Of a stretch of DNA of 64,000 bases, positions 6,189-24,423 are shown in pieces; position 1 is the first letter of the stretch; every line of letters starts with the position of its first letter. The notes under the pieces were generated by a model. It searched no databases. It worked only from the letters and a program-made list of their open reading frames with translations, and was not told the DNA's origin. Made by a program: the position numbers and the translations under genes. The DNA is from Escherichia coli (GTDB lineage: Bacteria; Pseudomonadota; Gammaproteobacteria; Enterobacterales; Enterobacteriaceae). The stretch lies in NCBI RefSeq assembly GCF_046105845.1, contig NZ_CP151004.1; one strand, written 5' to 3'.

Positions 6189-7679
6189 ATGAGTACTACA
6201 ACCCAGAATATCCCGTGGTATCGCCATCTCAATCGTGCACAATGGCGGGCATTTTCCGCTGCCTGGTTGGGATATCTGCTTGACGGTTTTGATTTCGTTT
6301 TAATCGCCCTGGTACTCACCGAAGTACAAGGTGAATTCGGGCTGACGACGGTGCAGGCGGCAAGTCTGATCTCCGCAGCCTTTATCTCTCGCTGGTTCGG
6401 CGGCCTGATGCTCGGCGCTATGGGTGACCGCTACGGGCGTCGTCTGGCAATGGTCACCAGCATCGTTCTCTTCTCGGCCGGGACGCTGGCCTGCGGCTTT
6501 GCGCCAGGCTACATCACCATGTTTATCGCTCGTCTGGTCATCGGCATGGGGATGGCGGGTGAATACGGTTCCAGCGCCACCTATGTCATTGAAAGCTGGC
6601 CAAAACATCTGCGTAATAAAGCCAGTGGTTTTCTGATTTCCGGCTTCTCTGTGGGGGCCGTCGTTGCCGCTCAGGTCTATAGCCTGGTGGTTCCGGTCTG
6701 GGGCTGGCGTGCGCTGTTCTTTATCGGCATTTTGCCAATCATCTTTGCTCTCTGGCTGCGTAAAAACATCCCGGAAGCGGAAGACTGGAAAGAGAAACAT
6801 GCTGGTAAAGCACCAGTACGCACGATGGTAGATATTCTCTACCGTGGTGAACATCGCATTGCCAATATCGTAATGACACTGGCGGCGGCTACTGCGCTGT
6901 GGTTTTGCTTCGCCGGTAACCTGCAAAATGCCGCGATCGTCGCTGTTCTTGGGCTGTTATGCGCCGCAATCTTTATCAGCTTTATGGTGCAAAGTACGGG
7001 CAAACGCTGGCCAACGGGCGTAATGCTGATGGTGGTCGTGTTGTTTGCTTTCCTCTACTCATGGCCGATTCAGGCGCTGCTGCCAACGTATCTGAAAACC
7101 GATCTGGCTTATAACCCGCATACTGTCGCCAATGTGCTGTTCTTTAGTGGCTTTGGCGCGGCGGTGGGATGCTGCGTAGGTGGCTTCCTCGGTGACTGGC
7201 TGGGAACCCGCAAAGCGTACGTTTGTAGCCTGCTGGCCTCGCAGCTGCTGATTATTCCGGTATTTGCGATTGGCGGCGCAAACGTCTGGGTGCTCGGTCT
7301 GTTACTGTTCTTCCAGCAAATGCTTGGACAAGGGATCGCCGGGATCTTACCGAAACTGATTGGCGGTTATTTCGATACCGACCAGCGTGCAGCGGGCCTG
7401 GGCTTTACCTACAACGTCGGCGCATTGGGCGGTGCACTGGCCCCAATCATCGGCGCGTTGATCGCTCAACGTCTGGATCTGGGTACTGCGCTGGCATCGC
7501 TCTCGTTCAGTCTGACATTTGTGGTGATCCTGCTGATTGGTCTGGATATGCCTTCCCGCGTTCAGCGTTGGTTGCGCCCGGAAGCATTGCGTACTCATGA
7601 CGCTATCGACGGCAAACCATTTAGCGGTGCCGTGCCATTTGGCCGCGCCAAAAACGATTTAGTCAAAACCAAAAGTTAA
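6189..7679 (+). CDS. nanT: Sialic acid MFS transporter
   Basis: Track ORF 506 aa; conserved start [15 protein letters not shown] gives 496 aa; polytopic MFS protein. Confidence 0.93.
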
Positions 7680-8416: not shown

Positions 8417-9749
<1,333 letters not shown>

Positions 9750-9824
9750 ATTTATTAGATCAGGTGTGACCTGACCCATCTTTGGCACAGAGCCAAACCT
9801 GAACTGACGGACCGCTCTGTGCCA

Positions 9825-10130
9825 TTACCTGACGTTGTATTCTTTTATGTTAACACCCTTGATACTGTATATACCTGTCCGCTTAATTCGCTTGCCCTTT
9901 TTATTCGTAATAGTTGCTGTAAGTGTACTGCAGCGAATGGAATGACGTTCATCAATCACCAGCCGAATTGCTTCTGAAGCATCTTCCACCTCTAGAAGGT
10001 CGTGAGTCTTATTTAAGCCGAATGGAACAAGGTGGAAGGCCGTTTTTCCAGATGATTTTCTGGTTATTTTTACTGGATACAACACATCACCACTTTTATG
10101 GATTAATTCAAGCTGTTCAATGTAAATCAT
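9825..10130 (-). CDS. Hypothetical protein, 101 aa, in AT-rich segment
   Basis: ORF with AGGAA Shine-Dalgarno 8 nt upstream of ATG; about 40% GC by eye; no recognised family. Confidence 0.4.
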   Translation of the reverse strand: MIYIEQLELIHKSGDVLYPVKITRKSSGKTAFHLVPFGLNKTHDLLEVEDASEAIRLVIDERHSIRCSTLTATITNKKGKRIKRTGIYSIKGVNIKEYNVR

Positions 10131-10217
10131 GGCAACTTTCCTTCGTTTATCTGCATGAATATATAAACCGAAAATAGGAGATGCAATACAAAAGCTGTGG
10201 AAATATCAAATAGCCTC

Positions 10218-10574
10218 TCAATTTGGCAGACAGCGTCTGCCAAATCTTTGCCGATGGGAATTCTGCAGAATTTCAACATGTTGATAAAAAAGGTAAAAAA
10301 GCTTCATTTGGCGTAAGTTTTTTGCAGAGACCCCACGTTTATACCGTCGACTTAAATCCTGCGATAACCGATCAATCAGCTGTGCAGCATAAGCCGCTCT
10401 TGCCTCGCCGCCTTGTTCAAATTCGACAATTCGTCGGCCAATTTCCCAGTATGTGGCGGTCATTAACGCGTTAACACTACGTACCGTTTCCGTCCGGGCG
10501 CTATCGACCAGGTGAATAATACCGTCGTGGATTTGCTGGTAGCCTGTTGAGGTTCTCTCTGAGAGCGATTCCAT
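10218..10574 (-). pseudogene. N-terminal fragment of DUF1016/YhcG-like (PDDEXK nuclease family) protein, truncated
   Basis: 118-aa ORF with TYWEIGRRIVEFEQ...NLRQMKLFYLFY resembling the N-terminal domain of DUF1016 proteins; full-length members about 340-375 aa; C-terminal nuclease domain absent. Confidence 0.5.
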
Positions 10575-10727
10575 TATCTGTCCCTTTATATGGCGCTGCG
10601 TTGAATAATGGAATCAGCTATACGCCGGGCATCTACCGGTAACAATCCAGATGAGCGTATTACATTGGTTTTCTTCACATTATGCGAGGCACCTTCCAGC
10701 GAGGTGTCACGTTGTGGTGAAGATAAA

Positions 10728-10758
10728 TCAAAAAAGGCCGGAGCGGGCGTATCCGGCC
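10728..10758 (-). terminator. Intrinsic terminator ending the five-gene operon
   Basis: Minus strand reads GGCCGGA-TACGCCCGC-TCCGGCC followed by T-run, 8 nt after the VWA gene stop. Confidence 0.8.
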
Positions 10759-10765
10759 AGAATTT

Positions 10766-11935
10766 TCAGGCGGTTTCTCTTGCTGTCACTACGCCATTTT
10801 GCGCAGCCCACAGATTCACATCTTCCTTACGAATGGCGGCGGCCATCATGCCGGGGAATAAATCTGGGGTACAGGCAAAGGAGGGAATACCCATGGCGGC
10901 GAGTTTTCCTGCCAGTGACCGGTCGTAAAACGGCGCACCTTCATCGCTTAAGGCCAGCAGGGTAACCACCTGTACGCCGGACTGAATCAACTCACTGGCG
11001 CGTTGCAACAGATTGCGTTCCACCCCGCCTTCGTAGAGGTCGGAAATCAGCACCAGAATGGTATTGCGCGGATCGCGAATCAAAGACTGGCAGTAGCCCA
11101 CCGCGCGGTTGATGTCGGTGCCGCCACCCAGCTGTACGCCAAACAGCAGCTCTACCGGATCGTCGAGCTTCTCTGTCATATCAACGACTGCGGTGTCGAA
11201 AACCACCAGATGCGTTTTTACCGCCGGGAGCGATGCCATTACTGCGCCAAAAATACTGGAATAGACCACCGAGGAGGCCATCGACCCACTCTGGTCGATA
11301 CATAAAATGATCTCCTTTTGCGTGCGTTGAGACTTGCGCCCGTAGCCGATCAGCGTTTCAGGAACAATACTTTTATACTCTTCCTGCCAGTGGCGCAGGT
11401 TGGCGCGAATGGTGCGCTGCCAGTCAATTTCCGCGTGGCGCGGGCGACGATTACGTACCGCACGATTAAGAGCGCCGCTTACCGCGCTACGCATTGGCTC
11501 TTCAAGCTGTTTCATCAATTGCTCGACAACTTTACGCACCACAAGCCTGGCGGTTTCTTTGGTTTTGGCCGGAATTACGCCATTCAGCGACATCAGCGTG
11601 GAGACCAGATGAACATCAGGCTGGACGTTTGCCAGCATCTCTGGCTCCAGCAGCATACTGTGCAAATTAAGACGTTCAAAGGCGTCTTTTTGCATCACCT
11701 GAACCACAGAAGAAGGGAAATACTGGCGAATATCACCCAGCCAGCGAGCGACTTTGGGTGACGATCCACCCGTGCCGCCGCGTAATCCATGTTTACCGTC
11801 TGGCTGATAGAGCGCCGCCAGCGCGGCATCAATCGCGGACTCTCTGGCATCCAGCGCCACGTTACAGGCATTGTCGGCATCTTCTCCAAGGATCAGACGC
11901 CAGCGGCGCAGCCGTTCCATTTCGTTACTCGACAT
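10766..11935 (-). CDS. VWA-domain protein with MIDAS motif (CoxE-like)
   Basis: 389 aa; DxSxS motif in ILCIDQSGSMASS and downstream VLISDLYEGG; N-terminal RWRLILGE typical of CoxE-type VWA proteins; AGGGA SD upstream; 11-nt overlap with upstream gene. Confidence 0.8.
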   Translation of the reverse strand: MSSNEMERLRRWRLILGEDADNACNVALDARESAIDAALAALYQPDGKHGLRGGTGGSSPKVARWLGDIRQYFPSSVVQVMQKDAFERLNLHSMLLEPEMLANVQPDVHLVSTLMSLNGVIPAKTKETARLVVRKVVEQLMKQLEEPMRSAVSGALNRAVRNRRPRHAEIDWQRTIRANLRHWQEEYKSIVPETLIGYGRKSQRTQKEIILCIDQSGSMASSVVYSSIFGAVMASLPAVKTHLVVFDTAVVDMTEKLDDPVELLFGVQLGGGTDINRAVGYCQSLIRDPRNTILVLISDLYEGGVERNLLQRASELIQSGVQVVTLLALSDEGAPFYDRSLAGKLAAMGIPSFACTPDLFPGMMAAAIRKEDVNLWAAQNGVVTARETA

Positions 11936-22800: not shown

Positions 22801-24423
22801 AAATTGCTGGCGGAAGTAATCGTAAATAATGCGCGGCTGACTGGAGAGCACGGCGAATGGGGTGTCGTCGCCCATCGAACCGACCGCTTCCTGACCGTTT
22901 TCGCCCAGTACGCGAATTACGGAGTCCAGCTCTTCCGCGCTGTAGTTAAACTGTTTCTGGTAGCTGGCAAGTGTGTCGTCGTCCAGTTCGCGGCTACCTA
23001 CTTCTTCATCGGGCAGATCTTCAAACGGTACCAGTCGGCGGACGTTTTTCTCCATCCACTCTTTATATGGATGGCGGCTTTTCAGATCGTCATCGGTTTC
23101 TGCCGAGTGCAGAATACGCCCACTGCGGGTGTCGATAACCATCAGTTCGCCTGGCCCGACGCGGCCTTTTTCGACCACTTCGTCAGGCTGGTAATCCCAG
23201 ATACCGACTTCAGAGGCGCAGGTGATGAGCTTATCTTTGGTGATGACGTAGCGCGCCGGACGCAGACCGTTACGGTCGAGGTTACAGGCAGCGAAGCGAC
23301 CATCGGACATCACGATGCCCGCCGGACCATCCCACGGCTCCATATGCATGGAGTTAAAGTCAAAGAAGGCACGCAGTTCCGGGTCCATATCCGGGTTGTT
23401 CTGCCAGGCGGGTGGTACTAACAGACGCATGGCGCGGATGATATCCATCCCGCCTGCCAGCAGCAGTTCCAGCATGTTATCCATCGAACTGGAGTCAGAA
23501 CCGGTTTCGTTGACGAACGGCGCGGCGTCGTGCAGGTCAGGGATCAGCGGCGTCTGGAATTTATAGGTACGTGCGCGCGCCCATTGGCGGTTACCGGTGA
23601 TGGTGTTGATTTCACCGTTATGCGCCAGGTAGCGGAACGGCTGCGCCAGCGGCCAGCGCGGTACGGTGTTAGTGGAAAAGCGCTGGTGAAACAGGCAGAT
23701 GGCCGATTCCAGACGCAGGTCCGCGAGGTCCAGGTAGAAGCGCGGCAGATCCGCCGGCATACACAGACCTTTATAGATGTTCACCAGATTCGACAGGCTA
23801 CAGACGTAGAAGTCTTTGTCGGCTTCGAGACGCTTTTCAATGCGGCGGCGGGCGATAAACAGACGGCGCTCCATATCGCGCGGACGCCAGCCTGCCGGGG
23901 CGTTCACAAAAATTTGCTCAATGCGTGGCAGAGAGGAGAGGGCGATTTCACCCAGCACGCCTTCGTTAGTGGGGACATCACGCCAGCCCACAATCGACAA
24001 CGTTTCGCGTTGCAGCTCTTCTTCAACGATGTGGCGTGCGGCAGCAGCGAGTTCAGGATCTTTATTCAGGAATAGCATCCCGACGGCGTAGTTTTTTGCT
24101 AAACGCCAGCCGCGCTCCTGCGCAACGATGCGAAAAAAGCGATCCGGTTTTTGTAACAGCAAGCCGCAACCGTCACCGGTTTTACCATCGGCGAGAATCG
24201 CGCCACGGTGCTGCATGCGGGCCAGTGCGTGTATTGCAGTACGCACTACCTTGTGGCTAGGTTCGCCTTCTATGTGGGCGATCAGGCCGAAACCACAGTT
24301 ATCCCTCTCAAGGGATTTATCGTACAACATATCGTGAACCTCCCCCAGGCTCTGCGGGAACCCCACTTCCGAACCGCTGCGCACGGGCACAGAAAGAGCG
24401 TGGCGACGGGGGTTGCGTGTCAT
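19870..24423 (-). CDS. gltB: Glutamate synthase large subunit
   Basis: Track ORF 1522 aa; start at [12 protein letters not shown] gives 1517 aa; N-terminal propeptide before Ntn Cys in ERDNCGFGL; 12 nt upstream of gltD. Confidence 0.93.

Follow-up and report, generated by a model that had tools for sequence, protein, structure and literature searches.

A yhcG (DUF1016) remnant beside nanQ in Escherichia coli, very probably a pseudogene reduced in steps at a palindrome array

The YhcG family is an uncharacterised family of predicted nucleases of the PD-(D/E)XK type, with an E-D-E(I/L/V)K motif and a nuclease domain placed at residues 235-375 (PMC1189080). DUF1016 genes frequently have restriction-modification or other defence loci in their vicinity (PMC9881135), and K-12 YhcG matches the PDC-S02 models of PADLOC with E=2.2e-131. 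On these comparisons yhcG may be regarded as a candidate defence gene; a search of the literature found no experimental function or phage defence evidence for the family, and a sequence search found no solved structure. The intact K-12 protein (375 aa; COG4804) carries two Pfam domains, DUF1016_N (PF17761) at residues 19-184, covering model positions 2-137, and YhcG_C (PF06250) at residues 208-360, with the catalytic region at about 267-286 (RVD 267-269, IVDLK 282-286). The gene is also familiar from strain typing, as yhcG is one of the six length-polymorphism loci of the LSPA-6 scheme for O157:H7, in which its 392-bp allele is the 394-bp allele minus 2 bp (PMC3514354, PMC8733641, PMC4609728). 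Truncated copies have been recorded as well. The BL21 copy, ECBD_RS02720, is a RefSeq pseudogene ('DUF1016 N-terminal domain-containing protein; incomplete; missing C-terminus'), followed by a 101-aa 'transposase' (WP_000639208.1). The basic lesion described below is therefore already known and ordinary, being annotated by RefSeq as a pseudogene in BL21 and in hundreds of E. coli genomes.

The copy considered here lies in a 64,000-nucleotide stretch of E. coli DNA (contig NZ_CP151004.1), the whole of which is called the window; the coordinates of its features are collected in Table 1. The 118-aa product of the remnant ORF matches DUF1016_N in Pfam with E=1.9e-25 and 90 bits (cut-off 32.8), its residues 19-108 corresponding to model positions 2-90 of 137, and the same search gave no match to YhcG_C in this ORF. 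Model positions 91-137 are thus absent, and so is the PF06250 nuclease domain with its E-D-E(I/L/V)K motif, which in K-12 coordinates lies beyond the breakpoint, the catalytic region included. The remnant belongs to the YhcG/DUF1016 family by descent, carrying neither domain complete. Over the 102 codons that keep the original frame, 90 of the 102 residues are identical to K-12 and 95 to BL21, and the nucleotides that follow in the window (10221..10268) have a counterpart in BL21 and K-12 that encodes ...PSAEFPSAKIWQTLSAK. The exact protein has been deposited as HBA7593483.1 ('DUF1016 domain-containing protein [E. coli]'), and an identical ORF is present on at least 24 public contigs; among the six of these shown, the five that reach far enough upstream have the same neighbours as the window.

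Table 1. Features of the yhcG-nanQ region, in window coordinates
Feature	Position	Strand	Basis or remark
nanQ (yhcH), last gene of the nan operon, locus anchor	9285..9749	(+)	DUF386 E=3.6e-40; syntenic RefSeq annotation
62-bp spacer specific to the BL21-type arrangement	9750..9811		Alignment
Hairpin after nanQ, arms 9783-9793 and 9814-9824	9783-9824		DNA-fold z=-4.3
Foreign module, ~405 bp	9812..10216	(-)	85-86% DNA identity to Yersinia canariae and Enterobacter cloacae loci
101-aa orphan gene, RefSeq label 'transposase'	9825..10130	(-)	ORF and homologues
yhcG/foreign junction, holding the TGA stop of the remnant	10217..10220		yhcG from 10221, foreign up to 10216
yhcG (DUF1016/YhcG family) remnant ORF, 118 aa	10218..10574	(-)	ATG start; TGA stop 10218-10220
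Surviving 25-nt palindrome ATTTGGCAGAC-AGC-GTCTGCCAAAT, encoding QTLSAK	10221..10245		11-nt arms, 100% complementary
Leftover yhcG sequence, out of frame (residues 103-118, LQNSHRQRFGRRCLPN)	10221..10268	(-)	Alignments
Collapsed palindrome GAATTCTGCAGAATTTC, scar of the 39-nt unit loss and the 13-nt deletion	10258..10274		Alignments
yhcG codons 1-102, original frame kept	10269..10574	(-)	Alignments
Patch of clustered, mostly synonymous differences from the E. coli alleles sampled, shared with contig L022	10285..10410	(-)	23 differences from BL21 in 126 nt
Retained yhcG upstream region	10575..10765	(-)	Conserved with BL21 and K-12 up to ~10690
Five-gene island between the yhcG remnant and gltD (18439..19857)	10766..18206	(-)	Domain assignments

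Much of what the first-pass annotation had proposed for this ORF is confirmed. It had described a truncated, N-terminal DUF1016-type protein containing TYWEIGRRIVEFEQ and NLRQMKLFYLFY, both of which are present in the translation, and deprived of its PDDEXK nuclease part, and the Pfam results agree on both counts. It had also suspected a yhcG remnant that marks a breakpoint; alignment to full-length yhcG, the check it had suggested, gives collinearity with K-12 from the start codon to codon 135, after which homology is lost abruptly at 10221. The estimate of about 110 aa of family sequence was right as to truncation but too long, as 102 codons are in the yhcG frame, and the terminal residues, which had been called unrelated, do fall outside the family in sequence but are not foreign in origin, the 16 of them being frame-shifted yhcG.

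In K-12, BL21, strain N96 and O157:H7, yhcG is the gene convergent with nanQ, and the order nanK-nanQ-yhcG is common to all four; in the window nanQ is likewise preceded on the plus strand by nanT, nanE and nanK. Of 5426 complete E. coli genomes, 4316 have a yhcG that the DNA at 10270-10600 matches, with 80-92% identity (best 92.4%). The remnant is the yhcG gene in its native place, with nanQ on one side and the gltD part of the chromosome on the other, and since the DNA is collinear and nanQ syntenic, it represents the resident yhcG and not cargo of the nan operon. Accordingly, the suggestion that the gene had been carried with the operon finds no support, yhcG being the resident neighbour of nanQ in most E. 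coli, while its description as next to the operon terminator is correct only loosely, as the 101-aa ORF intervenes. The hairpin after nanQ is devoid of a T-tract and was not called terminator-like, and Rfam gave no match in 9500-11000. The description as a decayed defence-type gene stands as regards decay, with 'defence' reasonable only as a candidate label derived from PADLOC PDC-S02. Window gltB (20000-23000) reaches a best identity of only 98.4% among 5416 complete E. coli genomes, and the lineage of the window is therefore absent from the complete-genome set; draft assemblies with proteins identical to those of the window exist.

Two features upstream of the remnant deserve mention in their own right. 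A perfect 10-11-nt inverted repeat, GATTCCATTAT … ATAATGGAATC (10567-10577 / 10605-10615), could bring the region of the start codon into pairing with 5' leader sequence lying 27 nt upstream of it, and is kept in K-12 (L002 7229-7238 / 7266-7275); it could be a candidate translational control hairpin for yhcG. Further upstream, the interval between yhcG and gltD is variable (window 10575..18438 versus K-12 L002 7236-13290, L001 and L010). In K-12 it holds gltF and yhcA-yhcF, interrupted by IS2 and IS5; in BL21 and O157 gltD directly adjoins yhcG; in the window and N96 a five-gene island stands between the two genes. The island encodes, in coordinate order, a VWA_CoxE protein (389 aa), a DUF5682 protein (749 aa), an AAA_5 MoxR-like ATPase (402 aa), a DUF5691 protein (541 aa) and a SWIM zinc-finger protein (440 aa). 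Only 33 of the 5426 complete E. coli genomes have it, among them N96, whose yhcG is intact. No significant PADLOC match was obtained for it, the ATPase alone giving weak IetA matches (E ~1e-3). The VWA protein is labelled 'YehL ATPase stimulator' by one source, and the island is suggestive of a yehLMPQ-like paralogous cluster.

A three-way alignment of the window, BL21 and K-12 allows the loss of the yhcG 3' part to be placed precisely. Homology to K-12 runs from the yhcG upstream region to codon 135 (…IWQTLSAK) and stops at 10221, and homology to Yersinia and Enterobacter begins at 10216. Where K-12 has 781 bp, made up of yhcG codons 136-375 and a 59-bp spacer, the window has 471 bp, running from 10220 to the stop codon of nanQ. 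The junction is shared with BL21, and so is the inserted DNA, in which the two sequences show only 5 differences over about 470 nt. This BL21-type arrangement is found in 718 of the 5426 complete E. coli genomes (~13%), counting those with at least 80% of the query covered, and it is found in Shigella as well.

The break falls in a palindrome array. K-12 yhcG contains three tandem 39-nt units, each with a 27-nt palindrome, which encode QTMSGELTPLGIP, QTPSAEFPSAKIW and QTLSAKS; as single-stranded DNA, the three-unit array is predicted to form a row of three hairpins (fold z=-12.4 for K-12 and -9.6 for BL21). A fourth palindrome, ATTCTGCAGACACTGTCTGCAGAAT, with 12-nt arms and a DNA fold of z=-4.2, lies in K-12 between the yhcG and nanQ stop codons, directly 3' of the former (L002 6068-6094), and is missing from the arrangement shared by BL21 and the window. 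With copies of the palindrome both within yhcG and immediately beyond it, deletion of the whole 3' part of the gene could be favoured. The palindrome that survives at 10221..10245 is the gene-distal unit (DNA fold z=-2.4), and the yhcG/foreign junction lies at its outer edge, K-12 reading GGGGAAAG followed by ATTTGGCAGAC, and BL21 and the window reading CCTCTCA followed by ATTTGGCAGAC. As the K-12 stem is 4 bp longer, the break lies inside the ancestral stem, that is, in the outer stem of the gene-distal hairpin. The idea that the palindrome might be a dispersed repeat of the REP or MITE kind was rejected, because there is no other copy in the window and it occurs in one place per genome.

Compared with BL21, the array of the window lacks a further 52 nt, and no complete E. 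coli genome spans the resulting collapsed-palindrome junction. An intermediate allele is nevertheless extant on a public contig (L022), where a 146-aa ORF (P0108; 68 cluster members) lacks exactly one 39-nt unit, in frame, reading GAAATTCTGCAGACACCG joined to TCTGCAGAATTCC, and has the same diverged patch as the window. The window is short of another 13 nt (TCTGCAGACACCG), made up of the spacer and one of the 8-nt TCTGCAGA repeats. The 159-aa allele of BL21, the 146-aa allele of L022 and the 118-aa allele of the window hence align in series. The last deletion leaves a short, perfect palindrome at 10258-10274 and shifts the frame after codon 102, and 16 out-of-frame codons lead to a TGA on the foreign junction. 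Since CTGCAG is itself palindromic, the arms of the hairpin repeat each other in direct as well as in inverted orientation, and sequences of this kind are classic substrates for deletion by strand slippage.

The sequence that replaced the yhcG 3' part has relatives outside E. coli. The 101-aa ORF keeps its length and sequence across genera (82-89% identity), and belongs to a family of about 34 clusters at 50% identity, all of whose members are about 100 aa long and share the motif H-x-SGD-x-LYPV…GK-x-AF…VR…GLY. In Yersinia canariae the gene is located in an integrase-bearing island next to icd, in Enterobacter cloacae at the edge of a lambdoid prophage remnant, and at a third locus (L013) at the boundary of a variable region; no DUF1016 gene was found near it at any of these three loci. 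The Yersinia and Enterobacter genes are those at L004 5001-5306 and L006 5001-5306. The Yersinia and Enterobacter copies of the module share 560 bp, 165 bp more upstream than E. coli keeps, and since this homology extends past the E. coli junction, the junction is not the natural end of an element. The E. coli copy is thus truncated, the module being at least 560 bp long elsewhere, and the junction suggests that illegitimate recombination or a deletion, and not a site-specific insertion, gave rise to it. Within the 560-bp block, over which the Yersinia canariae and Enterobacter cloacae copies are 82.5% conserved, a non-coding stretch of about 250 nt ahead of the 101-aa gene is conserved too (L004 4751-5000, L006 4757-5000); E. 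coli keeps only its proximal 85 nt. It could be a leader, a promoter or a small RNA.

As for the 'transposase' label of the 101-aa gene, it derives from the UniRef name 'IS600 orf-like protein'. The ORF gave no Pfam, NCBIfam, PHROG or PADLOC match, the best of 26 family members searched against Pfam reached no better than E=0.098, and no homology to a transposase catalytic or DNA-binding domain (DDE, HUH, tyrosine/serine recombinase, IS3 OrfA HTH) was found in it. Inverted repeats flanking the module were not found, and the module occupies one place per genome in complete E. coli genomes; by tblastn the protein is absent from phage records and present in three plasmid records only. The annotation is without support and appears to be a legacy error. 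AlphaFold, when given close homologues only, produced an unusable model (pLDDT 51), but a deeper, more diverse alignment yielded a confident one (pLDDT 92.9, pTM 0.83) with a predicted beta-rich fold and one helix, for which no significant neighbour was found in PDB or BFVD. An integron gene cassette was also considered, on account of a GTTAGGC-like core that precedes the module in Enterobacter, and was rejected because homology extends 165 bp beyond the E. coli junction and because there is no attC-like RYYYAAC/GTTRRRY pair. The Yersinia integrase near the gene (295 aa) adjoins icd, the Iso_dh gene, in a setting that we take to resemble the phage-type integration of e14 and phage 21, and is presumably shorter than integron integrases; both points argue against an integron.

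Altogether, the ORF is very probably a pseudogene, a non-functional 5' remnant of a yhcG that was destroyed in steps. The lesions and their coordinates are read directly from the alignments, and the intermediate alleles still exist; the order of events would be as follows, that of the first two steps being deduced from the extant alleles. In a step common to BL21, the 3' 781 bp of yhcG together with the post-stop palindrome would have been replaced by 471 bp of foreign DNA, by a break inside the stem of the last of the three tandem 27-nt palindromes, leaving an ORF of 159 aa. One 39-nt palindrome unit would then have been lost in frame, giving the 146-aa allele. Finally, in the lineage of the window, the fused palindrome would have lost 13 nt between its two TCTGCAGA arms, with a shift of the frame after codon 102, so that the ORF ends 16 codons further on at the junction TGA. 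Hairpin or direct-repeat slippage and illegitimate recombination are the probable causes of these lesions. The product, whose N-terminal domain is short by a third and whose nuclease domain is missing altogether, cannot act as a YhcG nuclease, and it presumably has no function at all.

Several other readings of the same ORF were weighed against its interpretation as a pseudogene. That it might be a complete protein of a different family, the outcome that the first-pass annotation had named as contrary to its own view, or else a chance ORF, is scarcely conceivable: nothing was found in support, and Pfam (E=1.9e-25), the PADLOC PDC-S02 models (to E=1.9e-30) and a DNA sequence collinear with the yhcG that thousands of genomes have at this locus all identify it as yhcG. 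It is very unlikely, too, that the 118-aa product is a functional stand-alone DUF1016_N protein, for instance a DNA-binding or regulatory one, maintained by selection. An intact start codon and a conserved upstream region would be in keeping with such a protein, as would the many short DUF1016_N-only ORFs of Escherichia, Shigella and Salmonella (a search of a 5.8-billion-protein set with the N-terminal 102 aa returned only short ORFs and no full-length protein, and hence no intact donor for the diverged patch) and the fixation of the exact ORF in a lineage, on 24 or more public contigs. However, the N-terminal domain is itself cut, at model position 90 of 137, the BL21 equivalent is flagged as a pseudogene in RefSeq, and the remnant is shorter than intact orthologues through identifiable lesions, namely the replacement of 781 by 471 bp and the 39-nt and 13-nt deletions. 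The truncated alleles of 159, 147, 146, 139 and 118 aa have C-terminal tails that are completely unrelated and read in different frames, and that these tails differ so freely by indel and frame argues against selection on the end of the product. Taken by itself, the mostly synonymous nature of the differences from other alleles in codons 1-101 (pN/pS 0.12-0.25) could suggest that selection still acts on the product. Against this, the synonymous differences are clustered in the patch shared with L022, whose flanks differ from BL21 by about 2%, and such clustering is better explained by import. Divergence among yhcG alleles is high in general (pS up to 0.37). The patch is most simply read as having come in by recombination from a diverged allele that was once functional, and not as the outcome of selection on the fragment, and the low pN/pS has probably been inherited from functional alleles.

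The truncated yhcG and the 101-aa gene might alternatively constitute a new two-gene unit, with the 101-aa protein as effector or partner in place of the nuclease domain. The two are in the same orientation, 87 bp apart, and have been kept together in 718 complete genomes, and the 101-aa gene has stayed intact, is conserved between genera and encodes a protein with a confident predicted fold. This arrangement is highly improbable as a functional unit all the same, even more so than a stand-alone N-terminal protein, because the 101-aa gene occurs apart from any DUF1016 gene in Yersinia canariae, Enterobacter cloacae and L013, because the E. coli module is a piece of a module of at least 560 bp, which makes the junction accidental, and because the yhcG partner is still decaying through the 39-nt and 13-nt deletions. 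The decayed pseudogene thus remains the preferred interpretation.

The array that hosted these lesions varies in other yhcG alleles as well. Intact alleles differ in having one or three palindrome units, and within O157:H7 the yhcG matches in other strains span 78 bp more. Other short public ORFs (P0109, P0110 and P0116) have different indels in the array, that of P0110 being a frameshift in unit 2 of an otherwise intact-type yhcG. Judging by these alleles, the array would be a general indel hot spot in yhcG. In the original LSPA-6 assay, the lineage II allele of yhcG was reportedly 78 bp longer, and the typing indel is probably this 78-bp difference of two units, so that the palindrome array may explain the yhcG length polymorphism used in O157:H7 typing. 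It may further be conceived that the palindromes act as a hairpin-driven contingency region which repeatedly alters the unit number, frame and length of a candidate defence nuclease. This is an unlikely proposition; if it held true, E. coli and Shigella lineages would have lost or switched yhcG time and again, possibly under selection, and the window would be one end-state. A separate truncation of yhcG was observed on another contig (L012, NZ_CP082127.1 555314-560598), where a 237-nt DUF1016_N fragment abuts an IS3-family transposase fragment and a group II intron reverse transcriptase gene.

By itself the remnant matters little, as one more inactivated copy of an uncharacterised gene, and the only new points, both minor, are the 118-aa frameshift allele and the stepwise reconstruction. 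The value of the locus lies rather in being a clean stepwise example of gene decay mediated by palindromes and direct repeats, with the intermediate alleles still extant, and in showing that the neighbouring gene, annotated as a transposase without support, belongs to a small orphan family with a confident predicted fold that matched no solved structure.

Compared with the systems described so far, the remnant departs from each in a distinct manner. The LSPA-6 alleles occur mostly in an otherwise full-length yhcG, unlike that of the window. With respect to PDC-S02, a candidate family of PADLOC, the match of the remnant is confined to the N-terminal region (PDLC04807, E=1.9e-30, model positions 9-109 of 351). 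With K-12 yhcG it shares the locus, the start codon and the upstream region, but it is in frame for codons 1-102 only and has lost the whole nuclease domain. In the BL21 allele the junction, the foreign segment and the 101-aa gene are as in the window. BL21, however, keeps all three palindrome units and a 159-aa read-through ORF, whereas the window is 52 nt shorter (39 + 13), frame-shifted after codon 102 and diverged over 10285-10410, and what stands immediately upstream of yhcG is gltD in BL21 and the five-gene island in the window.
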